NCBI GenBank assembly: GCA_039683575.1
Contig: JBDKRC010000235.1
Location: 4,100-68,099, forward strand
Origin: Armatimonadia bacterium
GTDB lineage: Bacteria; Armatimonadota; Zipacnadia; Zipacnadales; UBA11051
Direction of reading: 5' to 3'
Length of the DNA stretch: 64,000 bases
Positions 36,642 through 60,955 of this stretch are shown piece after piece; the stretch's first letter is position 1, and each line of letters begins with the position of its first letter. The notes beneath the pieces were generated by a model. It had not been told where the DNA came from and made no database searches. It saw nothing but the letters and a program-made list of their open reading frames with translations. The translations under genes and the position numbers were made by a program.

Positions 36642-36663
36642 GATCGCATCCCCGTCGTCCTCC

Positions 36664-37952: not shown

Positions 37953-38011
37953 TGCGCTATGCGTTCAGCGAAGCGAAGTTCGTCGGTTGCTACGCCCGTG
38001 AAGGAGAGCGA

Positions 38012-42096: not shown

Positions 42097-43653
42097 CGGC
42101 TTGCTGCGGGAGGCCCGGGCGGATGCCCGGTGATCCGCCCGGACCTCCGTTCAACGAGCCGAGCAGCGCGCCGTGCGCGAGTATCCCGAATGCGTACCGC
42201 CGGAGCGTATCGCGTCGGTTTCGCCGACAGGGATGGCATTGCATCCCGTGCACACATGGTTACTGAACATACCTACTGCCATCCAGACTGCGGCACGACA
42301 GACCAAGGGGAGTAACCGGGCAAGGCCCAAGTGGAACGGAGACGCATACCGTCCGTTCCATCGGCGGCCAAGCACCAGATGATGCACGGCGCAACGCAAC
42401 GGGTCGATCTGGCACACGATGATCCGGCGCATACCACGGTGCGGTTCGGGCACGAAGGAATGATCACCAATGGACAAGACAGCGTGCAACACGCGGGGAG
42501 ATGATGTCCGCAGGCCGACACTTGACAAGCCGATCGTTACGATCGAAGTCGCCCACCCCGCGAGGGAGGTGCCCGATGATGACGCTCCGTTCGAGCACGC
42601 CCTACGCATACGGATTCGCGGATATGATCTACTACTGCTGGCTCTGTGACCGCATCCCCCTGACCATGGAAGAGCGGCACCCGAGCTTCCTGTTCAAGGC
42701 GCAACTCGTCGCCCCTGACTGCGCGATGTACGGCATCCCCGACTACTGGATGTCACCGGGATCGACTTCCCGGACGGGTGCGATCACACCAATGGGGCGG
42801 ACGAGCTCTGCTTTGGCCCCCACGGCTTCAGCGACGTTGTGCTTCGCCTCGTCTCCGAGTTGCGGGCCGAACCGTGGGATGCCAACCTCACAGACGAACA
42901 CCGAAGGATGCCCTGGGAGGACACGCCTGGGATGCGAGAGCTGATTGACAAGTTGGCAGGGCTACGCTACCCGGCAATGGCCACCGAAGAGCACCGGCAT
43001 CGCACTGGCGGGCTCTGATTGCCCGTCGCTCTGCGAAGTGCTTCTGCCTGCTGGGCCAACTGGGACTGGTGAACGTGACAATCTCCGAGATGCAGCATCT
43101 ATATCAGACCGCGATGGCGCCGATTGTCGGCGCAGCACTGGCTGAGTTCCTGAGCGGGCAGAGCCGCCGAGCGGTGCCATCCTCCAGCTACGCTGCATCG
43201 GAGACCAGTCGTTCCGCCTATGCCGATAGCCAGAAGACAACAGCCTTTGCCGTATGCGTGCTCGCTCTCCGCTTGTGTCTCGCCTCCCTCTACTATGACC
43301 AGCATGATCAGCATGATCAGGGTCGCTGCTTCAAGCGACTCGATCTCTTGCCCGCCATCTCGCAGGAATGGTGGCACTGTGCGTAGGCACTCCATCGCGG
43401 CCACATCCGGACCGCTGAGCGTCCTGCGATGGCCCGCCTGATCTCTGCCTGTTGGCGCCATCCATCGCAGTGTCATCGCCGCATTTGCGTTGCTAATATG
43501 CGCTGAGAAACTGGCTCACGTGTTCAGGCGCGACCACTCTCCCTGCGCGGCTATGCCCGAATGGATTCCGCCACAAAGAAGACGCGAAGGCCTCCTGCGC
43601 GGTAAACTGGAGACGGCGGATGCCGCCTAGCCATACACCGGTCAAGGACAGCA

Positions 43654-45117
43654 ATGCGTTGCGCCATCTACATCAGGGTTTCCACTGAAGAGCAGGCCCG
43701 TGACGGCCTCTCTCTCGATATGCAGAGACACCGCTGTGAACAGGCCGCGTTCGCAGCAGGGGCGGCGAGTATCGAGCACTTCTGCGATGACGGCTACTCC
43801 GGCACTAGGTCAGACAATCGTCCGGCGCTGCAGGGCTTCCTCAGCCGCCTCTCTGAGTTCGACGTGCTCTACGTCTGGAAGTTGGATCGGCTGGCGCGAT
43901 CGGCGAGGGATTGGCATAACATCATGCACGTCCTCGCGGCGGCTGACGTAGGGTTTGTGAGCATATCGGAAGCGATCGACGCCCACGGGATTGTCGGCAA
44001 GGCCACCCTTGGCATCCTGGCGAACGTTGCCGAGCTTTTCGTCGACATACTGCGAGAGAATGTGAAGGCCGCGCTGGCGGAGCGCACACAGCGGGGGCTC
44101 ACGCTGGGCCCCGTACCCTTTGGCTATCAGCGCGGTGCCAAGGGTGACCCAATCCTGCCGGATCCGCACACCGCACCAATCCTGCTAGAACTCTACCAGC
44201 GTTACGCCGAAGGGGAGACCATCGCCGGCCTTGCCAAGTGGTTGACGATCGCCACGAAGCGATCTACCCCTTGGGCGCCGACGGTGGTTCGGAAGATGCT
44301 GACCAATCCCGTGTACGCCGGACGCATCGTTCACAATGGGGAGGTGTTGGAGGGACTACATGTTGCCATCGTGCCCGATGACGTCTGGCGGGCGGCACAG
44401 GCACGCTGCCGTGAGAGCCAGCGGGTACATCCACCCGCCCGTCAACGGTCGCTGGCTCCGGTGTACCGCTGTGGCTTCTGCGGTGCAGCGGTTATGCGGC
44501 ATACTGGCAACCAAGCCTGCTATGGGTGCAGTGTACGCCAGTACGCGCCGCCGGCAGACCGTCACGCTCCTCTGTGGGTACCCATTGTGAAGGTTGAGCA
44601 CTACACCTGGGAAGTTGTCAGGTGGCTGACTTCAGATGAGGCCGCAGACATTGCACACCGTCGTCAGCAAGTACAGGCCACCGGCAAGCACAAAGGAGGC
44701 CGGACGGTGCTATTGACGGCAGAGCGAGACGAGATGATCTCTGCCATAGCGTACAATCTGGAGGCAGCACGGCTGGGCGCCGTTCCGGTGACGATCTTGA
44801 TAGATCAGAACCGACCTCTGCAGGCTAGGCTGGGGCAGATCGACACGGAACTCGCCCGTCTCGTCTATGATGAGCCAGACCCAGTCCCCCATCTATCGCA
44901 GGGCGAGCTTCTGGCCTTAGTGCAGTCTGCGTCCGCGGAAGAGCAGCGTTTGTTCCTGCGCAGTGTCTTTGACCGAGTGGAGCTATTCCCTGACCGTATG
45001 CGGTTCATCCTACGGTCGGCGGGGCTACCCCCTCTTGTGGCAGAACTGCCAAGATACTACGCCCCCGGACGTGGCGTATCCCCGCCCCTCGCGCTCCACG
45101 CAGACCCCCCTACCTGA
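43654..45117 (+). CDS. Large serine recombinase (serine integrase).
   Basis: Resolvase catalytic domain IYIRVSTEEQ (nucleophilic Ser) and DRLARS, followed by a recombinase domain (W..V..MLTNPVYAGR) and a C-terminal Cys-rich (CGFCG...CYGC) zinc-ribbon/coiled-coil region. GC is about 60%, lower than the upstream DNA. Confidence 0.9.
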   Translation: MRCAIYIRVSTEEQARDGLSLDMQRHRCEQAAFAAGAASIEHFCDDGYSGTRSDNRPALQGFLSRLSEFDVLYVWKLDRLARSARDWHNIMHVLAAADVGFVSISEAIDAHGIVGKATLGILANVAELFVDILRENVKAALAERTQRGLTLGPVPFGYQRGAKGDPILPDPHTAPILLELYQRYAEGETIAGLAKWLTIATKRSTPWAPTVVRKMLTNPVYAGRIVHNGEVLEGLHVAIVPDDVWRAAQARCRESQRVHPPARQRSLAPVYRCGFCGAAVMRHTGNQACYGCSVRQYAPPADRHAPLWVPIVKVEHYTWEVVRWLTSDEAADIAHRRQQVQATGKHKGGRTVLLTAERDEMISAIAYNLEAARLGAVPVTILIDQNRPLQARLGQIDTELARLVYDEPDPVPHLSQGELLALVQSASAEEQRLFLRSVFDRVELFPDRMRFILRSAGLPPLVAELPRYYAPGRGVSPPLALHADPPT

Positions 45118-45264
45118 AGTGACGCGCCTAGCAGGATTCGGGCCTGTTCCTGCAGAAGATCAGACCTCGGCACAGGGTCGTGGCGGGCGGCGTCAGCCGG
45201 TTGCCTACGCGCCGTGTCGCCAAGGTATGCCTCAGCAACCTAGACCCCAAGGGAGACCTCTGAT

Positions 45265-46299
45265 ATGGCCAAACGCAATTTATCAATGATTGAATACTTC
45301 AACAAGATGGCAAAGAACTGGGTCCCGCTGCTGACCTTCCAGGGCAACTCGCTCGCTGAATTCGAGGACTGGCAGGCCAAGGCCAGCGAGAAGTTTTTCG
45401 AGCTTCTCGGCGACTTTCCCCAGTCGGTGGATTCGGAGCCGGAGATCATCTACTCCATCGAAGAAGATGGGATCATCCGCGAAAAGGTAATCTTCGACTC
45501 CGAGGAGGAGATGTCCGTCCCGTGCGTAGTCCTGCGGCCGACCGATATGGAGGCCGACGGCACCAACGCCGCAATCCTGTGCAGCCACGGCCACGGGCCG
45601 TACGGCAAAGAGCCTGTGGCCGGCAACAAGTCCAGCGCCGGGCTGCGCGAGCAGATCGCCGCCCACCAGTACAACTATGGCGAGATCATGGCCCGTGCGG
45701 GGTATATGACACTCTCGCCCGACCTGCGTGTGTTCGGCGAACGTTCCGACGGCGGCAACCCCTACCCCGGCCGCGACCGTTGCAACGTGCAGTTCCTGCG
45801 CGGGGCGATGTGGGGCGTGTACACGCTGATGCTCAACATCTGGGACATGAAGTGCTGCGTAGACTACCTGCAGTCGCGCGCTGAGATGAACCCCGACCGC
45901 ATAGGCATGATGGGCCTGAGCCAGGGAGGCACGATGACGACCTTCGCCACGGCCGCCGAGCCGCGGATCAAGTGCGCCGACATCATCGGCTACCTGATCC
46001 CGTGGGAGCACCTTGCCATCAACCGGGCCAACTGGTGCGGAAGCCAGATGATTCCCGGCGTGTATCGCTTCTTTGACGTGCCGGATATCGCCGGCCTGAT
46101 CGCCCCGCGCCCACTCCTCATCGAGATGGGCGTACAGGACAGCGGCTTCTTCATCGAGGAGCAGTTGAAGGCGTTCGACCACCTCAAGCGGATCTACGAC
46201 GCGGCGGGCGCAGGCGAGGACCTGTGGCAGGACATGCATCCGGGAGAGCATGCGTTTGCCAACAACAAGGCGCACGAGTTCTTTGGGAAGTATCTGTGA
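45265..46299 (+). CDS. Alpha/beta-hydrolase-fold esterase (dienelactone-hydrolase/acetyl-esterase-like, 344 aa).
   Basis: Nucleophile elbow GLSQGG, a CSHGHGPYG block, and C-terminal DSGFF...HPGEHAF. GC is about 55%. Confidence 0.6.
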   Translation: MAKRNLSMIEYFNKMAKNWVPLLTFQGNSLAEFEDWQAKASEKFFELLGDFPQSVDSEPEIIYSIEEDGIIREKVIFDSEEEMSVPCVVLRPTDMEADGTNAAILCSHGHGPYGKEPVAGNKSSAGLREQIAAHQYNYGEIMARAGYMTLSPDLRVFGERSDGGNPYPGRDRCNVQFLRGAMWGVYTLMLNIWDMKCCVDYLQSRAEMNPDRIGMMGLSQGGTMTTFATAAEPRIKCADIIGYLIPWEHLAINRANWCGSQMIPGVYRFFDVPDIAGLIAPRPLLIEMGVQDSGFFIEEQLKAFDHLKRIYDAAGAGEDLWQDMHPGEHAFANNKAHEFFGKYL

Positions 46300-46338
46300 G
46301 CGAAGGAGATCAGCACGCACTGCCCATGGAGGAAGACT

Positions 46339-47562
46339 ATGCCAAACGAGCACGCCACCGGCACCAGACGGCTCAGGGGAGAGGCAGTCATCGCCTGCGC
46401 ATTGGCGTCCGCGTTCCTTCTGCTCTCCACCGCTCGGACGCAGGCCCAGCAGGCCGATGTCTCCAGTCTCTGGGTTAACGACAATAAGGGCGACGACAAT
46501 GCGACTGGTGACCGTGCGCATCCTCTGAAGTCGATCTCGGTTGCCTTGTCCAAGCTATCGGAACCCCTGCTGCACGGGGTGACCATCCACTGGGCCGGCG
46601 GCACGATCCTGTCCAGCGGCGGCAGGTGGATGCTTCCGGATCGCCTGCAACTTATGCTCCGCATGCTCCCCAGTGCGGGCGTGCGAATCGTCGGCGAACC
46701 CAACGAAGCGGGAGCGCTTCCGGTGCTGGCGTTCCGGGGTGATCCACTGGTTGATGTTGTCGAGGGCAACTGGTGGCTGGAAAACTTGCAGATCGGCAAC
46801 GGCAATTACGCTTGCGGTTTGAGGGCAACGGGGCCCGGGGTGGTGCGCCTCAGCAACGTGACGTTCCGCATCTATACCAACAGCGGCTGTGCCATACAGG
46901 CCCGTCGAGGCGGTCTGGTCGAACTCAGCGGCGCGATCAAGATCAATGAACACCTCCACGACCAAGCACCCCCTGACAGCTTTGCCAGTATCGTGGCGGA
47001 GTACTCCGGCATCGTCCGCTACGTCGACAGCGACCATAGTTCGCTCGATATGGGCAACGGTCAGTTGTCGACCAGCTACTATGGCGTGATCGAGCTCGGG
47101 GCCAAGGACGTGCGCGTCACAAGCTGGGGCGGGCAGAGCAACTGCGTCGCCATCAATGACAGTGGCCGCATCGACTTCCATGGCTCAACGATCCGACTGT
47201 GTGCCCGCCTCAAAGGCAACACACCTGTCGGCCTTGAGGACGATGGGCATGTGCTGGGCGAGGGAGCTCACTTGATCATCGAGGGTGACAACAACAACGC
47301 CATCGTTCTCCAGAAGAACAGCGCCTTCGGATGCACTACGGTCGAACTAAGAGGGCCTATCCGGACGGCGGTCAGTGCGATGAGCGGATCCACCTTTCAC
47401 GGCGGCTTTCTTGGCGACATCGGAAGTGTGGACGTCGACACGGGTGCCTGCGTTGCAATCGGCGAGGTCCAGGGGCGCATCACCGGGCAAGTGACTGCCA
47501 TCCGTGGCGGCACAGTCGTCCTTCCAGGAGGCAAGGTCATATTTGGTCAGGGCGGCCTCTAG
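46339..47562 (+). CDS. Secreted right-handed parallel beta-helix-like protein (407 aa).
   Basis: Signal peptide (VIACALASAFLLLSTARTQAQQ), then WVNDNKGDDNATGDRAHPLKSISVAL and Gly/Asn-rich repetitive strands. Confidence 0.4.
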   Translation: MPNEHATGTRRLRGEAVIACALASAFLLLSTARTQAQQADVSSLWVNDNKGDDNATGDRAHPLKSISVALSKLSEPLLHGVTIHWAGGTILSSGGRWMLPDRLQLMLRMLPSAGVRIVGEPNEAGALPVLAFRGDPLVDVVEGNWWLENLQIGNGNYACGLRATGPGVVRLSNVTFRIYTNSGCAIQARRGGLVELSGAIKINEHLHDQAPPDSFASIVAEYSGIVRYVDSDHSSLDMGNGQLSTSYYGVIELGAKDVRVTSWGGQSNCVAINDSGRIDFHGSTIRLCARLKGNTPVGLEDDGHVLGEGAHLIIEGDNNNAIVLQKNSAFGCTTVELRGPIRTAVSAMSGSTFHGGFLGDIGSVDVDTGACVAIGEVQGRITGQVTAIRGGTVVLPGGKVIFGQGGL

Positions 47563-47585
47563 GCGCCCGACCGGGCCTCATCGCT

Positions 47586-47818
47586 CCCCGCCGCTGCTGA
47601 TCGAGATGGGCGTACAGGACAGCGGTTTCTTCATTCAGCGCTTGCTCAAGCAACTGGCGGCGTATGACTACCTGAGGTGCATCGCAGATGCACCTCATAG
47701 CGCATCTATGACGCGGCGGGAGCCGGCGAGGACCTGCGCCAGGACATGCCCCCAGTGAGCACGCGTTTCTTAACAACAAGGTGCACCAGTTCTTCGGAGA
47801 GCACTTGTCGAGCGTCTG
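47586..47818 (+). pseudogene. Degenerate copy of the 3' end of the 45265-46299 hydrolase gene (frameshifted, with indels).
   Basis: ccgctgctgatcgagatgggcgtacaggacagcgg is nearly identical to 46108-46160. Downstream, atctatgacgcggcgggagccggcgaggacctg...aacaacaaggtgcaccagttcttcgg is a diverged homolog of the gene end. It contains the perfect palindrome GAGGTGCATC-GCA-GATGCACCTC at about 47672-47694. Confidence 0.7.
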
Positions 47819-48112
47819 ACCACTGAGCAGTCTCCCACGTCGGGGCTTGGCCGCCGGCCACGGTTCAGCACCACTACTGAGGAGCTACTTATGTCGCGGT
47901 CCGCACCCGCTGGGATGAGAATGCGCAAGATGGTGGCTGATGTCGGCGGCCGGAGCGGAGTCCGGGCGAACTAGACTCCGCCGCCTGTCAGGCGAACCTG
48001 ACACCCGCCGACTCGATGGTTTGGTGCCCGCCAAGGCGGCCCTGCCCATCTTTCCATTTCTTTGCCGTTGCCGTTACCATCCTCGCCGTTATTCTCAGAG
48101 GAGGTTCGTCAC

Positions 48113-49610
48113 CATGGATCGACTGACCGTTTCGCGCCTTCTGACCACGCTGTTGTCGATGGCGCTGCTCTCAACCGGATGGGCCCTGCCGTGTAGACAG
48201 TGCGGCGCTGGACCTGCAACCGTGGCCCAACGTCGGGCAGACTGCGGTGCGGTGGCACCGACCAAGGCCGTTGCGTACGCTGAGCCCGAGGTGGCCTGGG
48301 CTGGGCGGCCGCCGGCCGTCGGAATACGAGTGGCGCAGGCGGTTCCTGTCCCCGTCCCTCCGGTCGCACCGGTCACGCCGGCGGCCGGCCAGAAGGGTAT
48401 GCCATGGGAGCGGGCGGGCACCGCTGTGGGGCAGGAGATTGTGGGGCCCGACGGGGGCAAGATGGTGTGGGTGCCCGCCGGCAGCCTCCTGATGGGGTCA
48501 GACGAGAAGGACGCGCCTACCGATGAGAAGCCTGCACACCTGATGAAGCTCACCGGGGGCTTCTGGCTGGGGAAGTACGAAGTCACGATCGGACAGTACC
48601 GGGCCTTCTGCCAGGCGACGGAGAGGCGGTTCGGTTCCGACACCAGCGCCCCACCGGATCACCCCATGGAGGGACCGAGTTGGGATGAGGCAGCCGCTTA
48701 CTGCCAGCATTTCGGTCTTGTGCTACCCACGGAGGCGCAGTGGGAGTACGCGGCGCGAGGCGCTGACGGAAGGCGGTATCCATGGGGCAACGAGTGGGAC
48801 GCGAAGAAGTGCTGTAATGGTGCGAACAGGGGTACGGGAAGGGTTTTGACTCTGGCCGTGGGCAGCGTTGAGGCGGACCGTAGCTGGTGCGGTGCGGCAG
48901 ACATGGCTGGGAATGTCCGTGAATGGTGCGCGGACTGGTATGGCGATGCCTACTACGCGCAATCGCCTCCAGAAGACCCCAAAGGGGCCGGCAACGGCGA
49001 GTTCCGAGTCCTCCGGGGTGGTTCTGTTGAAGCCAACGGCGAGAGCTATTTCAGCGCATGGCGCCGCGGGCGGTGTCGTCCGGATATGCAGTACTTCTCC
49101 ATCGGGTTCCGTTGTGTGGCTTTGCCGTCCCAACCGATGCTCGATGGCAGTGACGTTGTGGTCGAGGGCGAGAGCTACACCAGTATTGCCCAATCCATGG
49201 CGCGGGGCAGCGATGCGGCCGCCTCCGGAGGGGCCTATGTCGGCATTCCGCTGGCTGAACCGCACGCGGCAAGAGAAGCTGCAACCCAGGACACGGGCAA
49301 CTGCGCGTATACGGTCGTGATCTCCACTGCCGGGGAGTACCGTCTGTGGGCGCGGGTATGGTGGACAGATTCCTTCGGCAACTCATTCTACCTGAGGCCG
49401 CCGGACAAGAAGATCATCGTGCTCGGCCAGGATTCGACCTTCCAGAGCTGGCACTGGGTCCGCGGCCCGTCATTGCACCTTGACGCGGGTCCAGTGACCA
49501 TCGTCGTTCAGAATCGCGAGGGTGGTACCCGGCTTGATGAGTTCCTGCTGACGACGAAGACAGACTACGTGCCGATCGGCCCCCTGTCAGAGACCGCGCA
49601 GAACAACTGA
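48113..49610 (+). CDS. Secreted FGE-sulfatase (SUMF1/formylglycine-generating-enzyme family) domain protein with a C-terminal extra domain.
   Basis: GGFWLGKYEVTIGQYRAFC...NVREWCADWY...FRVLRGGS...IGFRCV are typical of PF03781. Signal peptide after the Met at 48113 (MDRLTVSRLLTTLLSMALLSTGWA). Confidence 0.75.
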
Positions 49611-52433: not shown

Positions 52434-52452
52434 CTGTGGGGAGAAGCCTGAG

Positions 52453-54075
52453 ATGAAGAAGATCGTGCTTCTGCTGCTCGTGGGGATACTTGGTGTCATT
52501 GTGACTGCCCAAGCACAGACGGCGACTGTTGATTCCCCGCGTGAAGTGCGCATCGCGGAAGGCACCAAGCTTTGCGACCAGGCGGACAAGCTACTGGCGG
52601 AGGGGAAGGTGCAGGACGCTTTGAAGCTGTACCAGGCGGCGCTGAAGATCCTGCCGACTTCGCCGCGGGCGAAGGCCGGAGTGGAGAAGGCGAAGGGGGC
52701 GGCGGCAGCCCCGCAAGCCACGGCACAGCCGACGCCACCAGCCGCGCCCCCCCTCCCGCCACTGCCTCAGGAAGATGTGCCCGTGCCGCCGCAGACACAG
52801 GGTGCCTGCCCTCCGGAGGCGCTGGCGTGGCCAACGGTGATGGCGACCAAGCTGCAGGACCAGATTCCGTGGAAGGCATTCTACTGCAGTGTGGGACAGT
52901 ATGGCGGCGGGCTGGAGCGGGCCGCCCAGGCCGGACTGCGCGTGTGGGGTAGCTGGACCAATACAGCGATGTGGCTGCAACAGCCGCTTTCGGACCAATG
53001 GCTGCTGACGGTGGAAGTGGGATACCCTAAGGAAGACAAGAGCGGTCAGGCGGCCATCTGGCTCAATGGGCCAGGCCACGGGACCTCGGTCAAGGCGGGT
53101 TACTGCATCCAGGTGGGCCGCACCGAGGGAGCCATGTACGGACCAGGGACGACGGGACGCTTCACTGTCGCCCCGCCGTTCGCTGCCGAGAGCTATCACA
53201 TTGTCAACGTGCTCCGCAAGGGGCCGCAGTTCAGCTTATGGCTGGATGGACAGGAGATCGGCAGCTTTGAGGATACCGCGTCACTGTCCGGGCCGCTGTA
53301 CTCCCGTATTGGCATCGGGGCACTCGGCGGAAGCGAGGTATACTACCGGAACCTGCGGATCCAGGCAGTGCCACCGACTCCGGCTGCCCTCACTGAGATG
53401 AGCAAGATGCCAGCCGCACCCGCGCCGACCACGCCGCCCGCTCCGAACGGTGAGTTGCTGGCCGAAGTGAAGATGGATGGCCAGAATCCGGACTGGCACA
53501 TCTCGATGCCGCAGTCCACGTTCTGGAGGGGAGACCGGGTCATTCTCTGTGGCACATCGCCACGACTGCTCTGGCAGAAGGGGACAACCCAGGACTTCGC
53601 TTTCGAAGCAGACGTCCAGTACGTGCCCAGAAAGTACCCGGACCCACTGATGGTGCCGGAGGCGCAGCCAGACCGTTACTTGGCGACAGGCGCGGCGGAA
53701 GCGGAGTTGTTCATGTTCGTAAGGTTCGCTTCCGTGGTACCGATTGACCCTAAGGACGAATACCAGCCGCCGCCCGGCGCAGGCTGGCACTTCAGTTTCA
53801 ACCAGCAGGACCACCGTCTGGTGTGGAGAGATGCGGAGGGACGCCAGGGCGAGGCAACCAGCGTCCCCGCCTTCTGCCCCTTCGGCGGCAACAGATACAC
53901 GGTTCGAGTGGAGGTGCGACACGATCTCATTAGAGCCTATGTGAATGGGGCGCTGGTGACGGAGACGCCGCTGGGGGATCACTCGTGGCCGGCTAACCAG
54001 AAGGCTTTCGCGGCTGTCGGTAATTTGTTTGAAGGTGTCACCGTCTACGGCGCCCGCATCTATGCTCTGCAGTGA
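52453..54075 (+). CDS. Secreted DUF1080 (3-keto-disaccharide-hydrolase-like) two-domain protein with the conserved N-terminal module (paralog 2, 540 aa).
   Basis: Signal peptide MKKIVLLLLVGILGVIVTAQAQT and the SPREVRIAEGTKLCDQADKLLAEGK...LPTSPRAKAGV module. DUF1080-like endings VYYRNLRIQA and TVYGARIYALQ. Confidence 0.55.
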   Translation: MKKIVLLLLVGILGVIVTAQAQTATVDSPREVRIAEGTKLCDQADKLLAEGKVQDALKLYQAALKILPTSPRAKAGVEKAKGAAAAPQATAQPTPPAAPPLPPLPQEDVPVPPQTQGACPPEALAWPTVMATKLQDQIPWKAFYCSVGQYGGGLERAAQAGLRVWGSWTNTAMWLQQPLSDQWLLTVEVGYPKEDKSGQAAIWLNGPGHGTSVKAGYCIQVGRTEGAMYGPGTTGRFTVAPPFAAESYHIVNVLRKGPQFSLWLDGQEIGSFEDTASLSGPLYSRIGIGALGGSEVYYRNLRIQAVPPTPAALTEMSKMPAAPAPTTPPAPNGELLAEVKMDGQNPDWHISMPQSTFWRGDRVILCGTSPRLLWQKGTTQDFAFEADVQYVPRKYPDPLMVPEAQPDRYLATGAAEAELFMFVRFASVVPIDPKDEYQPPPGAGWHFSFNQQDHRLVWRDAEGRQGEATSVPAFCPFGGNRYTVRVEVRHDLIRAYVNGALVTETPLGDHSWPANQKAFAAVGNLFEGVTVYGARIYALQ

Positions 54076-54134
54076 CAATCGCAGGCGCACGCAGCAGCTG
54101 GTAGTGCAGAATGCTAGACTTGGGAGGCAGCCAG

Positions 54135-55850
54135 ATGAGGAAACCAGTTCCGTTTCTGATGTTGGCGATCTGGTTGGGATGTCTCGTCGCATACGCGCAG
54201 ACAGTGACCATTGATTCGCCACGCGAGGTGCGCATTGCCGAGGGTACTAAGCTTTGCGATCAGGCTGATGGGCTGGTCGCGGAGCGGAAGTATGCGGAGG
54301 CTCTGTCACTATATCGTGACGTACTGAAGATTCTGCCTACTTCGCCGCGGGCGAAGGGCGGGGTGGCGGCTTGTGAGGGGAAGTTGAAGGAGGCGGCGGC
54401 CGCGCCGAAGGCGGTCGTGGAGACGCCAAAGCCAGCGCCGGTGGCACAGGCGGCACCGCCAGCGGCGCCGCTGGCAGTGCCGGTGGCAATGGCGTCGCCG
54501 ACGGTGCAGTTAGGGCGACGGTTATTGCCTCCCAATCCCGATGACTATGAAGCATACAGCATGTTCGGCGAGATGCTTGACTGGACTAAGTCCACCGTCA
54601 GCCAGTATAAGAAACTTCCCGAGGGCAACATGCTGATAGTCACGGCCCATGGCTGGGACCCGGGAGGCCAGTTGGAGGACGGACAACTGGTGACGCTGGT
54701 GCAGGAGTTGCGCGAAATCAGGTGCCCGGTGGTGCTGACGCTGCTGAAGCAGACGAAACTGACTACGGCGGGATATGCGCAGTTGGCGGGATTGCCGAAC
54801 GTCGTGGCCCTGGCGGTGCAACAGTGCGCGACGGTGGATGATGAGGTTCTGGCGAGTTTCGCCAAAATACCGGCGCTGCGTTCGCTGATGCTCAATGAGT
54901 GCCACAAGGTGACTGATGTGGGGGTCAAGCGGCTGGCGGCGCTGCAGGATCTGCAGTATCTGAATGTGGCCAAGTGTGAGTTGGTTACGAGTGAGGGCGT
55001 GAAGGCGCTCAGCGCGTGTCCGAAGCTGGCGTCGCTGAACTTGTGGGGGACGCAGGGGTTTGCTGACGTTACGGCACTGACTGGGCTGACGTCACTGCGG
55101 GCGCTGGTGATGTTTTCAAAGCTGGACTCCAAGACACTGCCCGAGCTTGGGAAGCTGAAGAAGCTGCAGACACTAAACATGTCGGGGAACAATTTCGAGC
55201 GAGATTACAGCTTCCTCGCAGCTTTGCCGGAGTTGGAGACGCTGACGATAGCTGACGATCATATGCTCAGCGATATCGGCAAGAGCGATCTTGCGGGATG
55301 CAGGAACCTTAAGAGCCTGTCGCTGCCGAACTGCGGAGGGTTGACAGGCAGCGTGGCGCCCCTGGCGGCTCTTACCCAACTGGAGTCACTTAGTCTGAGC
55401 TACTGTCAGGAATTCACTGGAGAGGGGCTGCGGGAGTTAGCGGTGCTGCCGAAGCTGGAGGCACTTAGCATAACTGAGGCGTCGAAAGTCGGCAGTCCAG
55501 CGCTGGGCGAGATTGCCGCGCTGACGCAGTTGAAGTCGCTCAACCTGTGGAACTGCGACCTCTCTGACGCCGGGTTGGCGCAGTTGGCATCCCTGAAGGG
55601 ACTGCAGAAGGTCGGTTTGGCGGGCAAAGCAATAACGGACGTCACTTTGCAGTTGCTGGGAGGATTACCTGCTCTAGAGGAGGTAAGCCTGCGCGATACC
55701 ATAGAAGTCACTGACGCGGGGCTACTGGCACTAGCGCAGGCACCCGCAATGAAAAGGGTAGCCATACGGTACAGCAAAGTGACGCCAGCAGGCATCGGAG
55801 CGGCTAAGGCGGCCAAGCCCGGCCTTGTAACCGAAGTGATAGCGCCGTAG
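54135..55850 (+). CDS. Secreted leucine-rich-repeat protein with the conserved N-terminal module (paralog 3, about 572 aa).
   Basis: GGAGG lies 8 nt before the ATG. MRKPVPFLMLAIWLGCLVAYAQT, then the SPREVRIAEGTKLCDQADGLVAERK...LPTSPRAKGGV module. LRRs (LQYLNVAKCELVTSEGVKALSACPKLASLNLWGT...). Confidence 0.6.
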   Translation: MRKPVPFLMLAIWLGCLVAYAQTVTIDSPREVRIAEGTKLCDQADGLVAERKYAEALSLYRDVLKILPTSPRAKGGVAACEGKLKEAAAAPKAVVETPKPAPVAQAAPPAAPLAVPVAMASPTVQLGRRLLPPNPDDYEAYSMFGEMLDWTKSTVSQYKKLPEGNMLIVTAHGWDPGGQLEDGQLVTLVQELREIRCPVVLTLLKQTKLTTAGYAQLAGLPNVVALAVQQCATVDDEVLASFAKIPALRSLMLNECHKVTDVGVKRLAALQDLQYLNVAKCELVTSEGVKALSACPKLASLNLWGTQGFADVTALTGLTSLRALVMFSKLDSKTLPELGKLKKLQTLNMSGNNFERDYSFLAALPELETLTIADDHMLSDIGKSDLAGCRNLKSLSLPNCGGLTGSVAPLAALTQLESLSLSYCQEFTGEGLRELAVLPKLEALSITEASKVGSPALGEIAALTQLKSLNLWNCDLSDAGLAQLASLKGLQKVGLAGKAITDVTLQLLGGLPALEEVSLRDTIEVTDAGLLALAQAPAMKRVAIRYSKVTPAGIGAAKAAKPGLVTEVIAP

Positions 55851-55879
55851 TAGGTGAACTAACAGCAGGGCCTGGGGAT

Positions 55880-56270
55880 GCCGGCGGGCAGCGGTAACTC
55901 TAAAAGTGACCATGGCTGGTACGCCTTCAGCCCTGACAGCAAGAGGCTGATCGGGGGACAGCGGTGCGGACAGAAGTGGCGGGTAGTGGTAGAGATCCAG
56001 CCGGGGCCGGAGTACGACGCCATCGGCGTCCTGGGCGTCCTGGGCGGCAGCAACCCCTCCAAATCGCCAGCGTGTTTCAGCCCCGACAGCCGCCGCGTGG
56101 CGTATGCCGAGCAGCACGGGGCAAGTGGTTCGTCGTGCTCGACGGCGCTCCCGGCCCCGCGTACGATGACTGCTTCGGCCCGGTGTTTCCGCCGAACGGC
56201 AAGCTGGATTACTTGGCTGTAGAGGACGGCGTGCTGTATCGTGTCTCAGCGCTACCCCACGGCGCCTAGC
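55880..56270 (+). pseudogene. Frameshifted fragment of a PD40/WD40-like beta-propeller repeat protein.
   Basis: Two frames carry repeat units (WYAFSPDSKRL / CFSPDSRRVAYAEQHG in one frame; KWFVVLDGAPGPAYDDCFGPVFPPNGKLDYLAVEDG in another) that match each other (KWRVVVEIQPGPEYDAIG). Confidence 0.35.
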
Positions 56271-56304
56271 GCGCCGGGAGATCACATCGAAGGAGCGAAC
56301 TGCA

Positions 56305-57942
56305 ATGAGCAGGGCTACCATCTACCTGGTCATGGCCGTATGGTTAGCGGTTATGGTCGGTGTTCACGCGCAGACAGTGACGCCGACTTCCCCCCGTGAA
56401 GTCAGAATCGCCGAGGGGATCAAACTGTGCGATCAGGCGGACAAGCTACTGGCGGAGGGGAAGGCTCAGGACGCTTTGAAGCTGTACCAGTCGGCGCTAA
56501 AGATCCTGCCGACGTCACCGCGCGCGAAGGCCGGGGTAGAGAAGGCGAAGGCCCCCCCGGCGGCGCCCGTAGCCGTTCCAGCGCCACCGGCCGCCGAAAC
56601 CGTGCCAGTGCTGGAGCCGCCCAAGCCACCGACCCTCCCGCTGCCGCAGGATGAGTTTGCTGTTCCACCGGAGACACAGCAAGCCTGCCCCGCCGAGGCC
56701 TTGGCGTGGCCGACTGTAATGGCGACGACGTTGCAGGGGAGGATTCCCTGGCACGCCTTCTACATCTACGCCGGGCAATATGGCGGCAGCGTCAAGCCAG
56801 AGGGGCAGGCGGGACTGAGGGTCTGGGGCTCTTGGACCGACACCGCGCTGTGGCTGCGCCAGCCGCTTTCGGAATACTGGCTGCTCACAACTGAGGTGTG
56901 CGTCAAGAAAGACGACGGCATCTGTTTCCCGTGCTTTTGGCTGAGTGGCCCGGGATACGGCAATGCCCTCGGAATGCCCTACTCAGTGTCAATGACCTGC
57001 TCCGAAGGGTCTGTCACCGGCGGCGGGCGCACGGGCAAGTTCCGCATGCCCGAGGGCGTGAAAGAGGGAAGCTACTACACTCTCAACCTGCTGCGACAAG
57101 GGTCGCACTTTTCGATGTGGGTGAATGGTCAGCAGATTGGTGAGTTCGATGATGCGACTCTGACTGGCCCCCAATACAGCCATATAGCGATCGGCGCTCA
57201 GGGTGCCCCGGAAAAGGGCGTCTTCTTCCGGAATCTCCGCATCCAGGCGCTACCCCTGACGGCCGAACAGGCTGTGTCACTGGCGACGCCGCCGCTGTTG
57301 CCGGAAGCGACGACACCGCCCGCCCCCAACAAAAAGCTCCTGCAGGAACTTAGCCTCGACGGGCGCAGTGAAGGCTGGACATTTCCGCAGCCTCAGAACA
57401 TCTATTGGAAGCATGACAAGGCTGTGCTTGTGGATTCAGCTGCACGCCTGCTGTGGCAGACGGGGCTGACAGAGGATTTTGCTCTCGAAGTGGATGCCCA
57501 ATACCTCCCGAAGGTCTTCCCTACTCCGCTGATGCTCCCGGACAACCTGCCTGACGCCTACCTGCTTACCGGTGCCGCCGAAGGTGAACTGCAGTTGCAC
57601 GTGGGCTTGGGTGATGTAGCACCCACCGGTATGGACGGAGCAGACTTGCCCTCGCGGTGGCTCTTTATCTTCAACTCGTCCGGCAACCGGCTGGTGTGGA
57701 CGGGTGCCAATAAACAGGAGCAGAAAGCTTCCTCCCCGTACTTTGGCCCCACCAATGGCAACAGATACACGCTACGAATGGAGTTCCGGCGTAACGCCAT
57801 ACGCGCCTTCATCAACGGCCGACTAATGTTCGAGTCCGCAACCACCGATCACCCGTGGCTCCCGGGAACCAAGGCTTTCACGGGCCTGGATCAGGTCTAC
57901 GATGGCATCGTCATCCACGGCATGCGGATCTACAGTCTGTAG
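56305..57942 (+). CDS. Secreted DUF1080-like two-domain protein with the conserved N-terminal module (paralog 4, 545 aa).
   Basis: AAGGAG RBS. MSRATIYLVMAVWLAVMVGVHAQT plus the module. Collinear with paralog 2 (VFFRNLRIQALP ... HGMRIYSL). Confidence 0.55.
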   Translation: MSRATIYLVMAVWLAVMVGVHAQTVTPTSPREVRIAEGIKLCDQADKLLAEGKAQDALKLYQSALKILPTSPRAKAGVEKAKAPPAAPVAVPAPPAAETVPVLEPPKPPTLPLPQDEFAVPPETQQACPAEALAWPTVMATTLQGRIPWHAFYIYAGQYGGSVKPEGQAGLRVWGSWTDTALWLRQPLSEYWLLTTEVCVKKDDGICFPCFWLSGPGYGNALGMPYSVSMTCSEGSVTGGGRTGKFRMPEGVKEGSYYTLNLLRQGSHFSMWVNGQQIGEFDDATLTGPQYSHIAIGAQGAPEKGVFFRNLRIQALPLTAEQAVSLATPPLLPEATTPPAPNKKLLQELSLDGRSEGWTFPQPQNIYWKHDKAVLVDSAARLLWQTGLTEDFALEVDAQYLPKVFPTPLMLPDNLPDAYLLTGAAEGELQLHVGLGDVAPTGMDGADLPSRWLFIFNSSGNRLVWTGANKQEQKASSPYFGPTNGNRYTLRMEFRRNAIRAFINGRLMFESATTDHPWLPGTKAFTGLDQVYDGIVIHGMRIYSL

Positions 57943-57996
57943 ATCAGGCAGAAAGCCATTGCCGTCGCTGCCACAACGTACAGAGGGAGAACACCG

Positions 57997-58242
57997 ATGA
58001 CGAAGGCGACGCTCTTCTTAAGTGTCATACTCTTGCTCGGTGCGACTGTCGTTAGTTCCGCTGAGACCGTCACCGCGACATCGCCGCGCGAAGTGCGCAT
58101 CGCGGAGGGAACGAAGCTGTGCGACCAGGCCGACAAGCTGCTGGCGGAGGCGCAGGCGCAAGAAGCTATGAAACTGTACCAGCAGGTCCTGACCTTCCTG
58201 CCAACGTCCCCGCGGGCGAAGGCGGGTCGGTCAACCTGCTAG
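57997..58242 (+). pseudogene. Truncated fifth paralog of the N-terminal module family (81 aa), ended by an in-frame TAG that aligns with a Glu codon of the paralogs.
   Basis: MTKATLFLSVILLLGATVVSSAETVTATSPREVRIAEGTKLCDQADKLLAEAQAQEAMKLYQQVLTFLPTSPRAKAGRSTC*. GCG AAG GCG GGT CGG TCA ACC TGC TAG GAG AAA CTG AAG aligns with the paralog-3 sequence GCG AAG GGC GGG GTG GCG GCT TGT GAG GGG AAG TTG AAG (TAG versus GAG). The same frame continues into the hydrolase 3'-end fragment. Confidence 0.6.
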
Positions 58243-58371
58243 GAGAAACTGAAGCAACAGCCGACGGCGTGTACCGCCGCAGCCAGGCCGGCCTTTGTGC
58301 TGCCGCCTTCAACCAGCATTTTCGAGGCTGCCATAGAAGGCAACTTGACGTCCTTGCGCGACTTCCTGGAC

Positions 58372-58584
58372 ATAGCGGGTCTCATCGCCCCGCGCCCACT
58401 CCTCATCGAGATGGGCGTGCAGGACAGCGGGTTCTTCATCGAAGAGCAACTGACAGCCTTCTCGCACCTCAAGCGCATCTACGACGCCGCCGGCGCGGGC
58501 GAGGACCTCTGGAAGGACATGCACCCGGGGGAGCATGCGTTTGCCAACAACAAGGCGCATGAGTTCTTTGGGAAGTACCTGTAG
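58372..58584 (+). repeat. Copy of the 3' end of the hydrolase gene (about 93% aa identity over the last 70 codons), in frame with the truncated paralog upstream.
   Basis: DIAGLIAPRPLLIEMGVQDSGFFIEEQLTAFSHLKRIYDAAGAGEDLWKDMHPGEHAFANNKAHEFFGKYL* matches DIAGLIAPRPLLIEMGVQDSGFFIEEQLKAFDHLKRIYDAAGAGEDLWQDMHPGEHAFANNKAHEFFGKYL*. Confidence 0.8.
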
Positions 58585-58872
58585 AGCATCTCATGCGATG
58601 ACGGCTGTCTCATAGGCGCTGACAACGAACATGCTCTCGAGTAGAGAGGCCCATGCGCTTTCTCGGCCCACGCCTCCGTTGCTTCCTGGTGCCGAAGCCT
58701 CACCTCACAGGGCTGTGGCCACCCCGGCGGAGAGGGGGGAGTGCTGGTCGTGCCTGTCCACGCATCCCTCGATCCGTTCGATGGCCGCCTTCGTGGCGGG
58801 GAGACCCGCGCCTGACGTCCTATTGCGTGATGTCGTACGGGCGAAGCCATGCTTCATAATGGAGGATTTGCG

Positions 58873-60441
58873 ATGAAACCTGCCCTGCTCCACTATCTCC
58901 GCGTCGCCATGATCCTACTCTGCGCCGGCTGTCGGACGGGGCCGCTTGGCGCACAGTCCTCGCCCAGACTGGTTGAGGTGTATCTTTCGGACATCGGGGC
59001 CGCATCGCTGCCGGCCGAACCATCACGGTATCACGAGAATAGCAGTTTCTACGGGCGTCAGATGACTATCAACGGCAAAGAGTACGCCCGGGGAATCGGG
59101 ACTCATGCGCCGTCGAAGATCACGTATGACCTCGAAGGTCTGGGTTTCACCCGGTTCCGGGGGGTGGTGGGAGTTGACCAGGAGACGGCTGAGGAGCCCG
59201 GGGGCAGTTGTGAGTTCGTCCTGATCGGAGATGGTAACGAGATATTCAATAGTGGCGTGGTCAGGAAGGTCGACGTGGGCGTAACCGTGGACGTTGACGT
59301 GCGTGGTATCACGGAACTGCAGTTGGTCGTGACGGACGCGGACGATGGCGATACGTGTGATCACGCAGACTGGGCTGATGCGCGTCTTCTGAGGCCCGCC
59401 ACCGCCACTCCGCCTCTGCCGCCAAAGGGCCATCAGCCTCCGGTCAGCAACCCACCGAGTTCTCCCCGCCTGCTCACCGATACGCTGCGGGAACTCAAGG
59501 TCCTGGTCGTGTGCATCGATCCCCCCGTCAATTCTGCCGACGGGAAGCGGCTGCACGAGGTGGCCCGCTGGAATGATCCCCGGCAGCTTGCGGACCAGTA
59601 CATCGCCGCTCTTCGTGGGTGCAGCAAGGGCTATCTTCGCTACCGTATCGTTGACTGGGTAGACTGCGACTACTTCCTCCTACAGGCAGATGGTTTTCGC
59701 TACCCAACCGCCGAAGCCTACCTTACCGCCCTCCGCGGCCAAGCCATTCACCGGCCTGATGTTGCCGGTCTTCGTAGGTTCATCACAGACGGCGTCACCT
59801 ACCATTTCAACAATCCCCGAAGCATCGCGCAGCGCGTGGCGGACGGCGAGATAGATGAGGTCTTCGTGTTCAACCCATGGGGTGCCGGCGGGTTCGGCGA
59901 GGCCAACATGGCCGGTCCAGCCCCATTTGGCATCAATGGGTCCATCCGCATCGTGCCGGAAACCGGACGCAACATCGCCGTCATGGAGTTCAATTATGAG
60001 AGAGGCGTTGACTGCATGCTTGAGAATTTCTGCCACCGCACTGAACGCAGCCTAAGTCGCGCATATGGGCTTTTTGGTCGGCCGGCGCCGCAAGGAACGC
60101 TTGACAACTGGCAACGCTTCAGTGCCTACGACAAGATCATGCCAGGGAATGCAGCCGTAGGGAACTGTCACTTTGCCCCCAATAGCGCATCAGACTATGA
60201 CTGGGGGAACAAACGAATGGTGCCAAGTTCATGCGACGACTGGCTATTGAACTGGCCGGACTTGCGGGGTATCCGGCGGGAGGTGGACTGCTCCGAGTGG
60301 GGCGGCGGCGACATGCGCCTGCATCACATCTGGTGGCTGAACCATCTGCCGTGTGCACGCGGCACAAACCCTGACGGTTTGGAGAACAACTGGTGGAAAT
60401 ACGTGGTCGATCTCGATGGTTATGCCGCCCACCCACGGTGA
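58873..60441 (+). CDS. Lipoprotein with an N-terminal NPCBM/NEW2 carbohydrate-binding-like domain and an uncharacterised C-terminal domain (about 522 aa).
   Basis: GGAGG lies 8 nt before the ATG. Lipobox LLCAGC. NPCBM hallmarks: ...YARGIGTHAPSKITYDLEGLGFTRFRGVVGVDQE...CEFVLIGDGNEIFNSGVV...LQLVVTDADDGDTCDHADWADARLL. Confidence 0.7.
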   Translation: MKPALLHYLRVAMILLCAGCRTGPLGAQSSPRLVEVYLSDIGAASLPAEPSRYHENSSFYGRQMTINGKEYARGIGTHAPSKITYDLEGLGFTRFRGVVGVDQETAEEPGGSCEFVLIGDGNEIFNSGVVRKVDVGVTVDVDVRGITELQLVVTDADDGDTCDHADWADARLLRPATATPPLPPKGHQPPVSNPPSSPRLLTDTLRELKVLVVCIDPPVNSADGKRLHEVARWNDPRQLADQYIAALRGCSKGYLRYRIVDWVDCDYFLLQADGFRYPTAEAYLTALRGQAIHRPDVAGLRRFITDGVTYHFNNPRSIAQRVADGEIDEVFVFNPWGAGGFGEANMAGPAPFGINGSIRIVPETGRNIAVMEFNYERGVDCMLENFCHRTERSLSRAYGLFGRPAPQGTLDNWQRFSAYDKIMPGNAAVGNCHFAPNSASDYDWGNKRMVPSSCDDWLLNWPDLRGIRREVDCSEWGGGDMRLHHIWWLNHLPCARGTNPDGLENNWWKYVVDLDGYAAHPR

Positions 60442-60717
60442 TCTGGCATTGGAGGGGCCGCAGCGTCAGCGCCCGAGGTGGGATCACCGCTAGGTCACGA
60501 CCCGCTGCGTTACGCAAGGCGCACGGGGCTGCGCTTCGGTTGCGGAACCGGGCCGAGTGTAGGCTGCCAGGATCTTGTTGCTGCGGCCGAGGACCATATT
60601 GGCGGGTTCTTGGCCCACACACTATCTGCCGGGCGCCAATCGAAGGCGGATGCAGCGCCAACACAGTGGCGTCGGCTATTGTCGTTAGGTGACTAGACAG
60701 TACCCAACATCTACAAG

Positions 60718-60949
60718 TACTTTGACGTCCCAGACATTGCCGGGCTGATCGCGCCACGGCCGCTGCTGATCGAGGCCGGTGTCCAGGATAGCGGGTTCTT
60801 CATTGAGGAGCAGTTGGCGGCCTTTGACCACCTCCAGCGCATTTATGACGCGGCTGGGGTTGGCGAGGACCTGTGGCAGGACGTGCATCCGGGGGAGCAT
60901 GCGTTCGCCAACAATAAGGCGCATGAGTTCTTTGGGAAGTATCTGTAGA
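60718..60949 (+). repeat. Most diverged copy of the hydrolase 3' end (about 77 codons, ending KYL*), abutting the convergent SWIM gene. Candidate original attB-side remnant.
   Basis: YKYFDVPDIAGLIAPRPLLIEAGVQDSGFFIEEQLAAFDHLQRIYDAAGVGEDLWQDVHPGEHAFANNKAHEFFGKYL*. Confidence 0.75.
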
Positions 60950-60955
60950 TCGGCG

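Follow-up and report, generated by a model that had tools for sequence, protein, structure and literature searches.

Large serine recombinases (LSRs) insert prophages and islands that split a host gene, among them SPbeta in spsM, the skin element in sigK and Listeria A118 in comK. We analyzed a 64,000-nucleotide stretch of DNA (hereafter the window) from a 68,981-bp contig of an Armatimonadia metagenome-assembled genome (MAG; locus tags ABFE08_, encoded proteins MEN6643977 to MEN6644030), whose genes were mapped by Pfam, PHROG and PADLOC scans. Most of the window, at least positions 1-60,699, is probably a large, composite, strain-specific island that was inserted by LSR-type recombination into the Val263 codon of a conserved hydrolase gene and that holds scars of displaced hydrolase 3' ends near its right end. 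It is an ordinary kind of mobile element in a little-studied phylum, and is modestly unusual in carrying a paralogue of its own target together with a stack of displaced 3' ends, an arrangement that recurs in related genomes.

As with SPbeta, skin and A118, the target is cut into complementary halves without a long duplication, the arms of the reconstructed attachment site of the element (attP) are inverted around a dinucleotide, and sibling genomes hold an intact target. Unlike in these three, the recombinase gene is not beside either visible end, and the island, with a length of at least 60 kb, brings along a paralogue of the gene that it entered, is laden with defence genes and has no recognizable phage genes.

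The right part of the island also resembles the sequential displacement arrays of Vibrio cholerae, where orphan immunity genes and effector 3' ends of its type VI secretion system (T6SS) accumulate, and the orphan tips of Rhs and contact-dependent inhibition loci; in these, an intact gene is followed by co-oriented, 5'-truncated 3' copies with foreign DNA between them (PMC5361080). For the effector-immunity arrays of T6SS and for Rhs loci, the proposed mechanism is sequential displacement through homology-facilitated illegitimate recombination, in which a homologous anchor is combined with an illegitimate join (PMC5361080). The window shows the same anatomy: an intact gene, co-oriented truncated 3' copies and heterogeneous junctions. 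Here, however, the displaced 3' ends are conserved rather than variable toxin domains, the anchor is an esterase-like hydrolase, and the cargo consists of secreted or housekeeping-type genes (the latter an RsgA-like GTPase in contigs L101 and L175) instead of immunity genes. Variable toxin domains with cognate immunity genes were not found in the array, whose cargo encodes FGE-sulfatase, leucine-rich repeat (LRR), DUF1080 and NPCBM domains.

Tandem growth beside one gene is also known from staphylococcal cassette chromosome (SCC) islands at the 3' end of rlmH, and from the accretion of integrative and conjugative elements and cis-mobilizable elements (CIMEs) at the 3' end of fda in Streptococcus thermophilus. 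As in those loci, integrase-less segments lie in tandem beside one conserved gene and are separated by repeats from its 3' end. SCC and CIME repeats are short, with one identical attachment (att) core per junction, whereas here only the outermost junction has att features; no common att core was found at the internal junctions, and the repeats start at codons about 271, 278 and 278-283. With mobile and chromosomal integrons the locus has in common that a recombinase gene adjoins an array of units, most of them single genes, which all point the same way and have repeats between them. Unlike integrons, it has no IntI tyrosine recombinase, attI or folded attC, and its repeats are pieces of coding sequence. 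The only tyrosine integrase gene (36,664-37,797) is on the opposite strand, 8.5 kb upstream, and attC-like hairpins do not bound the cassettes, the folding of the repeat ends on both strands giving z values of -1.8 to +0.8.

The native hydrolase gene is split at Val263

The island and the features of its right part and right flank are as follows (coordinates, strand, description).

1-60,699, no strand assigned: strain-specific composite island DNA, left end outside the window
43,654-45,117, plus: large serine recombinase, 487 aa
45,265-46,299, plus: intact 344-aa alpha/beta hydrolase, Abhydrolase_7 by Pfam (H')
46.3-60.4 kb, plus: genes for secreted proteins (one 407-aa protein without family match, one FGE-sulfatase, two LRR, two DUF1080, one NPCBM), divided as in the cargo rows below
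46,339-47,562, plus: cargo 1, the secreted 407-aa protein without family match, a singleton cluster
47,574-47,807, plus: hydrolase 3' fragment f47, from codon about 278-283, decayed and frameshifted
47,940-49,610, plus: cargo 2, FGE-sulfatase-domain protein (Pfam)
49,810-49,973, plus: hydrolase 3' fragment f49, codons about 278-326, decayed and truncated on its 3' side; a mechanical open reading frame (ORF; 49,836-52,433) starts inside it
50,040-57,942, plus: cargo 3, four paralogous secreted proteins ending at 52,433, 54,075, 55,850 and 57,942, the first start (about 50,040) being an estimate
57,997-58,242, plus: truncated fifth copy (81 aa) of the TPR-like N-terminal module of cargo 3
58,360-58,584, plus: hydrolase 3' fragment f58, codons 271-344 and stop, frame intact
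58,849-60,441, plus: cargo 4, NPCBM-domain protein (Pfam)
60,675-60,698, plus: element-side arm (P arm) of attR, GCTATTGTCGTTAGGTGACTAGAC, unique in the window
60,700-60,701, plus: putative crossover dinucleotide GT inside the Val263 codon, from the alignment of attB, attR and attL
60,700-60,948, plus: f60, 3' half of the native hydrolase gene, codons 263-344 and stop, stranded by the insertion (tblastn)
60,956-61,858, minus: SWIM zinc-finger gene, convergent with f60, native right flank (Pfam SWIM; 300 aa, MEN6644029)
61,870-63,996, minus: 195-aa gene (unk195) and SNF2 helicase gene, the latter open at the window end, native right flank (Pfam SNF2-rel_dom, Helicase_C)

In sibling Armatimonadia MAGs the native gene is intact and encodes a 344-aa alpha/beta-hydrolase. 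In the window only its 3' half, f60, stands beside the SWIM gene, separated from the SWIM stop codon by 7 nt. The residues it encodes are identical to those of the intact hydrolases P0246 and P0123 (82/82) and nearly so to those of P0249 (81/82), with 72/82 shared with H', the intact copy in the window; at the nucleotide level f60 is 92-93% identical to the intact genes of contigs L096, L175 and L177. A 25,899-bp contig encodes the complementary part, P0245 (MEN6645111.1, 276 aa), a hydrolase of native type whose sequence is undisturbed up to and including Val263 and then continues with VKSPNNNSWGVAA before its stop codon. Residues 1-263 of P0245 are identical to P0249 at 262 of 263 positions and to H' at 237. 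Because P0245 and f60 both match the native allele far better than H', they can be read as the two halves of one native gene.

We found further that the DNA in front of f60 and the foreign tail of P0245 are related. The reverse complement of 60,675-60,698 (GTC TAG TCA CCT AAC GAC AAT AGC) fits 22 of the 24 nt of codons for VKSPNNNS in the P0245 tail, a score that none of 20,000 shuffles reached, and no other among 127,952 window positions reached even 21. The arm was scored against the eight tail residues nearest the junction; the full 16-residue tail gave an uninformative score. This fit argues that each island arm is an inverted copy of the other, the two being symmetric around GT, and the attL DNA after Val263 is predicted to read approximately GGTNAAGTCACCTAACAAYAAYAGC, an inverted copy of 60,675-60,698. 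GT is the sole sequence common to attB (CAGATG-GT-GCCGAAC in L096), attR (CTAGACA-GT-ACCCAAC in the window) and attL (...Q M V V K... in P0245), which makes it the likely crossover dinucleotide.

The same junction recurs in an independent metagenome contig (L097), where hydrolase codons 263-344 are followed by the SWIM 3' end at 86% nucleotide identity. In front of these codons L097 has about 25 nt of the same arm, about 80% conserved, and the DNA farther upstream is unrelated, which is how a conserved recombinase half-site on different elements should look. Judged by its sequence, the right edge is a genuine integration junction with the att anatomy of LSRs, namely inverted arms around a central dinucleotide, with the P' arm read from the protein tail. 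It lies at 60,699/60,701 and not, as an earlier note on this DNA had put it, exactly at the SWIM gene (60,955), the last 248 nt being native host sequence. In a phylum that has been little studied, the locus supplies a candidate pair of att sites for a serine recombinase, with attB at about hydrolase codons 253-272 and a reconstructed attP of about 52 bp. A passage in PMC12286644 gives LSR att sites as short, about 40-50 bp. When viral contigs were searched, the arm had one match, inside an ORF of a low-GC phage contig and without a palindromic partner, which we treated as chance.

The island probably extends beyond the left end of the window

The genes to the right of f60 belong to the chromosome. 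At 90% identity the SWIM protein falls in a cluster of 5 (three of them sibling-MAG copies), unk195, which is common to sibling MAGs, in a cluster of 4, and the hydrolase in a cluster of 13. In the sibling MAG ABFE07 the unk195 homologue, SWIM and an intact hydrolase are consecutive (MEN6548609, -610 and -611) on one 11,253-bp contig. To judge by these consecutive accession numbers, ABFE07 appears to hold the uninterrupted (empty) site, with the hydrolase directly beside SWIM, so that the target is split into complementary halves here and is intact in a related genome. Another sibling, ABFD94 (MEN6404625-MEN6404628, on a 12,941-bp contig), has two annotated proteins between SWIM and the intact hydrolase where ABFE07 has none; the pair could represent a further variant of the cargo at this site.

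To the left of f60 the window looks different. In a set of about 15 billion proteins, the products of all 12 window genes that were looked up exactly, spread from 5.4 to 57.9 kb, each form a 90%-identity cluster by themselves. The 12 are the kinase, SspC, SspB, the 160-, 205- and 338-aa proteins, Dcm, another protein of 184 aa, the recombinase and, from the cargo, the 407-aa protein and the two DUF1080 proteins. Within the window we found no attL, no 5' half of the hydrolase gene and no second copy of the arm. The genes that neighbour the hydrolase in relatives are absent from the window as well, and are not conserved among those relatives. Because the window contains no left junction and 12/12 genes are strain-specific, the island would cover at least 1-60,699. 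Its contents are an SspABCD-FGH-like defence system, a high-GC module with iteron-like repeats, Dcm and Vsr, a tyrosine integrase, a DNA methylase, the serine recombinase, the hydrolase paralogue and the secreted-protein cargo.

The simplest reading is a single composite island from the window start to 60,699, with attL on the contig that encodes P0245. P0245 is numbered about 1,080 proteins after the window genes, and the gene number of sibling MAGs is 4,390 or more; on this numbering, the 5' half likely belongs to the same genome. An argument from the size order of contigs was dropped, since the contigs of the sibling ABFD96 are not size-ordered. For annotation, the boundary of the island shifts from 42.1 kb, where it had been placed, to beyond the left end of the window, and its right boundary is fixed to the base. 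The Ssp-type defence system, the methylases and the secreted proteins then count as cargo that one strain-specific insertion brought in.

The island carries a paralogue of its target

The product of H' is identical to MEN6644017. It matches the native 5' half at 237/263 residues (90%) and the native 3' half at 72/82 (88%), and has both the GLSQGG nucleophile motif and a complete C-terminal part. In the alpha/beta-hydrolase fold the C-terminal part carries the acid and the histidine of the catalytic triad, and the insertion cuts the native gene between the nucleophile region and this part. H' plausibly compensates for the loss of the native gene. At the integration site H' reads ATG ATT CCC GGC, against ATG GTG CCG AAC in the intact gene of the L096 type (MIPGVYRFF around codon 263, against MVPNIYKYF in the native allele). 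Because the GT core is absent from H', the recombinase that cut the native gene may be unable to use this copy as a target, which could protect it from such an insertion.

Truncated, probably displaced hydrolase 3' ends separate the cargo

Four further copies of the final 160-250 nt of the hydrolase gene, namely f47, f49, f58 and f60, lie downstream of H' in the same orientation. Since the first three separate the DNA between 46.3 and 60.7 kb and f60 closes it on the right, the region consists of four cargo segments. The hydrolase repeats in the window are 70-87% identical, each junction lies at a repeat edge beside unique DNA, and in the three copies whose 3' ends survive the homology stops at the hydrolase stop codon. 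The four proteins of cargo 3 each have a signal peptide, a TPR-like N-terminal module, a Pro/Ala linker and then an LRR or DUF1080 domain; a common N-terminal repeat of 225 nt (family D1; signal peptide and ...SPREVRIAEGTKLCDQADKLL...LPTSPRAKAG) recurs between 50,088 and 58,266.

The best-preserved internal fragment, f58, is 93% identical to H' in amino acids and 87% in nucleotides. Its 29 nucleotide differences from H' fall in 20 synonymous and 5 non-synonymous codons, and because they are mostly synonymous, the fragments were evidently working gene ends before their displacement. At the internal junctions, including the left junction of f58, we found no inverted-repeat arms and no shared motif, and the 3' end of the hydrolase gene shows no excess of synonymous-site conservation. 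The junctions are thus heterogeneous and lack arms, a motif, an attC-like fold and extra synonymous constraint, and for this reason we interpret f47, f49 and f58 as scars of serial 3'-end displacement.

The fragments match different close alleles, f58 being 92-93% identical to the H'/L095 type and f60 97-100% to the L096/P0123 type, and the two undecayed displaced 3' ends are 85-93% identical to the resident 3' end. Across the cargo region the hydrolase copies are 85-97% identical to Armatimonadia alleles, compared with about 65% for a Planctomycetota homologue. As far as these copies can tell, the cargo donors would be related lineages; an origin in Planctomycetes or Verrucomicrobia, which the earlier note had suggested from the domain content, is not supported.

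The same architecture occurs in other assemblies

Arrays of a hydrolase gene and hydrolase 3' fragments were also found in contigs L098, L101, L105 and L175, with no serine recombinase gene in the sequence at hand. In L101 the order is hydrolase, a 289-aa gene, a fragment, an RsgA-like gene, a fragment and a 239-aa gene; L098 has two cargo genes and two fragments; in L105 a 104-aa ORF lies between the hydrolase and one fragment and is followed by a second cargo gene; and L175 has hydrolase, RsgA and a fragment. The arrays of L098 and L101 are very compact, with fragments that begin a few bases from the cargo stop codons. Outside the window, the starting points of fragments lie 53, 66, 81-96 and 187 nt ahead of the stop codon.

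A direct view of an insertion polymorphism is given by L101 as compared with L096 and L175. The first fragment of L101, the sequence after its stop codon and the RsgA-like gene correspond to the intact 3' end and RsgA of L096. The RsgA-like GTPase gene (2,539-3,735 in L101; 3,340-4,478 in L175) directly follows the hydrolase in L175 and L096, or a hydrolase fragment in L101, and a short hydrolase 3' fragment comes after it, overlapping the RsgA stop codon; this housekeeping-type gene, too, appears to be a displaced segment. Stacks of displaced 3' ends, known from toxin loci, are thus present in several Armatimonadota assemblies downstream of a conserved gene for an ordinary enzyme, and such scars could mark repeated gene flow at a hotspot.

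The serine recombinase gene lies away from the visible end

The product of 43,654-45,117 has the domain architecture of an LSR, with Resolvase (1e-33) and Recombinase (1e-14) domains by Pfam and a match to PHROG 95 (integrase). Its N-terminus resembles the TP901-1 integrase, with the catalytic serine of RVST aligned; the zinc-ribbon part was seen by eye, as a CxxC...CxxC motif that PF13408 does not match. By its sequence the recombinase looks complete. No second serine recombinase or paralogue was found in the window, and IMG/VR holds no relatives. The nearest relatives elsewhere are 26-41% identical, with none above 41%.

In the three relative loci that we viewed most closely, the recombinase 3' end abuts or overlaps a neighbouring host gene (a prophage in L091; L089; a comM insertion in L107). 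In L107 (2,729-5,252; also in L108) the 3' end of a distant LSR gene (26%) overlaps a truncated, convergent comM-like Mg-chelatase gene. This element, inserted in comM 1.2 kb upstream of a hydrolase homologue, is the only other case in which recombinase and hydrolase are linked, and we regard the linkage as coincidence. Comparison of the window with the recombinase-relative loci by tblastx was too noisy to use beyond the recombinase itself.

On the visible side, that of attR, an LSR gene does not lie beside the att end. The att anatomy suggests that a serine recombinase did the cutting; as for the gene at 43,654-45,117, it is a tentative candidate for the cognate integrase, and we lean slightly against it. 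A second recombinase may lie near attL.

Proposed order of events and alternative explanations

The following order of events would account for the locus. In the uninterrupted state the hydrolase gene would have been convergent with SWIM, unk195 and SNF2. LSR-type insertion at Val263 would then have separated the part with the nucleophile from the C-terminal part, leaving the 3' half beside SWIM and the 5' half, now on another contig, with a 13-residue tail read from the left arm of the island, and H' would plausibly compensate for the loss of the native gene. In each displacement, DNA of a related lineage would recombine by homology within the hydrolase gene and be joined illegitimately a little farther on; the gene would thereby receive a new 3' end and new downstream genes, and its old 3' end would be pushed downstream. 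The split gene with its complementary halves, the palindromic arms, the strain-specific island genes and the anatomy of the repeats, here and in other contigs, are direct observations.

Several points weigh against this account. The recombinase gene ends 15.6 kb from attR, with an intact hydrolase gene in between, and its own 3' end has no arm; in relatives the recombinase stands at the right end of the element. The empty site is read from consecutive accession numbers, not from sequence, the P' arm from the protein tail of P0245 and not from DNA, and the membership of P0245 in the same MAG, which is not proven, from accession numbering. MAGs are incomplete, so that a single gene's absence from the siblings says little. 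Finally, the account does not explain why a copy of the very gene that the island entered should be part of that island, along with an array of scars.

Some of these points would fit a much smaller insertion, which we nonetheless consider unlikely. An LSR element at Val263 would survive as the right end, approximately the NPCBM segment (58.6-60.7 kb); the locus would have been repaired when a related, intact hydrolase allele replaced it by homologous recombination, and then have undergone serial displacement; the hydrolase at 45,265 would occupy the native position; the recombinase and all leftward DNA would be separate upstream islands, and P0245 would come from another strain, which the unproven membership of P0245 allows. 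Intact hydrolase genes with 3'-fragment arrays do occur at chromosomal loci, with no recombinase in the sequence at hand, and the relatives of the recombinase form the right ends of elements that extend upstream of them, which fits an element end at about 45.2 kb. However, no native-looking DNA lies to the left of the hydrolase for 45 kb, and H' differs from the native allele over its full length (237/263), so that the crossover would be needed upstream, in strain-specific DNA. Moreover, the only members of the hydrolase cluster in the ABFE08 range are H' and the truncated P0245.

Two enzyme-driven readings of the arrays have less to recommend them. Quite improbably, the hydrolase 3' end could be a dedicated gene-capture platform in Armatimonadota, an analogue of integrons, driven by a serine recombinase or some other enzyme, that stacks promoterless cassettes, with the arrays in L098, L101, L105, L175 and the window as its products; if so, the island would carry both the platform and a target-site-immune gene copy from host to host. 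A narrower form has scarcely any probability in our view: the hydrolase 3' end would be a capture site at which the adjacent serine recombinase inserts single-gene cassettes in trans, each with a hydrolase-like site. The recombinase gene indeed lies directly upstream, all cargo is co-oriented, and the compactness of the L098 and L101 arrays would suit cassettes. Yet the left junctions lie at many positions and share no motif or inverted arms, the repeats lack both an attC-like fold and excess synonymous conservation in the 3' end, and relatives show no linkage of recombinase and hydrolase beyond the element in comM.

Base composition does not delimit a 19-kb island

The earlier note had instead proposed a discrete 19-kb island at 42.1-60.95 kb, mobilized by the recombinase at its left end and of Planctomycetes or Verrucomicrobia origin; it gave the GC content as falling there from about 67% to about 55-60%. 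We found 62.0% GC in 42,100-60,955, so that the drop amounts to some 2-4 points and not to 7-12; one-kb windows under 60% number 15 out of 179 in the block, and with a minimum of 58.4% none is under 58%. Likelihood segmentation placed change points at 16,900 (log-likelihood ratio, LLR, 27.1), 35,690 (LLR 26.4) and 60,950 (LLR 8.4), with 63.6% GC in 1-16,900, 67.3% in 16,901-35,690, 62.4% in 35,691-60,950 and 66.2% in 60,951-64,000. The strongest compositional feature of the window is therefore the high-GC segment at 16.9-35.7 kb; a baseline of about 67% holds for this segment, itself a local high, and not elsewhere. The return to about 66% at 60,956 was confirmed, the change point lying within a few bases of it.

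At 42.1 kb the block has no beginning. A boundary forced at 42,099 gave an LLR of 1.2 (63.6% GC to the left, 62.6% to the right), and the position holds just a terminator-like hairpin, with neither an att arm nor a half of the target gene. The hairpin and the stretch to its right are:

42,109-42,148, plus: terminator-like hairpin with 16-nt arms (94% complementary) and an 8-nt loop, after the gene at 41,338-42,096
42.15-43.65 kb, no strand assigned: ORF-poor stretch

Over these roughly 1.5 kb upstream of the recombinase gene (42,150-43,650) we found no convincing ORF, no Rfam match (even at E 0.1), no tRNA and no notable repeat.

Codon usage does set part of the block apart. GC content at third codon positions (GC3) is 0.69 in the serine recombinase gene and 0.69-0.75 in the cargo genes, which accounts for the mild dip to 62%, compared with 0.80-0.86 in SWIM, unk195 and SNF2 and means of 0.82-0.86 in the chromosomal genes of relatives. 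The intact hydrolase (0.85) and the fragment ORF at 58,297-58,584 (0.83, the sole fragment measured) have native-type values. Tetranucleotide composition does not single out the block: its correlation with chromosomal DNA of relatives is 0.56-0.59, that of the other window segments 0.42-0.57 and that of the relatives among themselves 0.65-0.76, and all long segments of the window are about equally atypical.

We therefore find a separate 19-kb unit very hard to sustain. In its favour are the low GC3 shared by recombinase and cargo, the reality of the right edge, and domain families that are common in Planctomycetes and Verrucomicrobia. The genes listed for it (LSR, FGE-sulfatase, LRR, DUF1080/3-keto-disaccharide hydrolase, NPCBM and SWIM) were all recovered by Pfam, and the idea of a serine-integrase island stands insofar as foreign DNA does end beside the convergent SWIM gene, at an LSR-type att junction. 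However, all testable genes between 5.4 and 57.9 kb are strain-specific, those to the left of 42.1 kb equally so, a native-type, high-GC3 hydrolase gene interrupts the block, and the cargo is accompanied by hydrolase fragments whose alleles are of Armatimonadia type. A modest GC dip judged by eye is a poor guide to the limits of an island whose strongest compositional feature, the high-GC segment, lies inside it. An assembly chimera, joining contigs of different strains or organisms at repeated hydrolase sequence, might be feared in a MAG with five related repeats in one region, but it is extremely unlikely, given that the repeats are just 70-87% identical with junctions at their edges beside unique DNA, that the attR junction lies outside any repeat and recurs in the independent metagenome contig L097, and that similar arrays exist in at least four other assemblies.

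Other genes of the window

The left part of the window holds the following features.

1-16,734, minus: SspABCD and SspFGH-like module (Pfam, PHROG and PADLOC)
10,133-11,302 (SspA), 11,359-12,222 (SspD), 12,182-15,610 (SspC) and 15,610-16,734 (SspB), minus: complete SspABCD phosphorothioation module, with SspF-, SspG- and SspH-like genes next to it
17.6-27 kb, plus: small genes without family match, an AAA ATPase and an M41-like protein
28-36 kb, minus: repeat protein, IstB-like ATPase, Dcm and Vsr
36,664-37,797, minus: tyrosine integrase
37,929-39,128, plus: N6/N4 DNA methylase
39.3-42.1 kb, plus: small genes without family match

No tRNA gene or Rfam match was found anywhere in the window. 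The identification of 17-45 kb as a prophage was rejected, as the region has zero matches to PHROG structural families. In the defence module, the SspF-like part is the C-terminal region of a 1,553-aa protein with NERD and PglW-like Ser/Thr kinase domains (5,458-10,119).

Most genes of the high-GC segment (16,900-35,690, 67.3% GC) have no Pfam or PHROG match. Between small plus-strand genes at 17,637-22,452 there are five copies of a 53-nt intergenic repeat (CCGAnCCCCCTTGCCCACG...GTGAnCCCACCCGTG), and an inverted copy lies 15-20 kb away, at the start of the tyrosine integrase gene (37,704-37,741); the repeat may serve one element as a common promoter or operator. A 925-aa protein encoded on the minus strand at 28,131-30,908 is made of many 69-nt (23-aa) repeats and has a weak match to DUF6745.

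The Dcm cytosine methylase and Vsr mismatch endonuclease genes adjoin the tyrosine integrase gene (34,658-37,797). The GC change point at 35,690 coincides with the Dcm/Vsr boundary, which may be an internal seam of the composite island. Five to six tandem 21-nt units (TCACCCCGTTTTGGGAATC-like) at 32,741-32,883, inside or just upstream of the ORF at 32,040-33,404 and beside the IstB/DnaC-like ATPase gene, look like the iterons of a replication origin.

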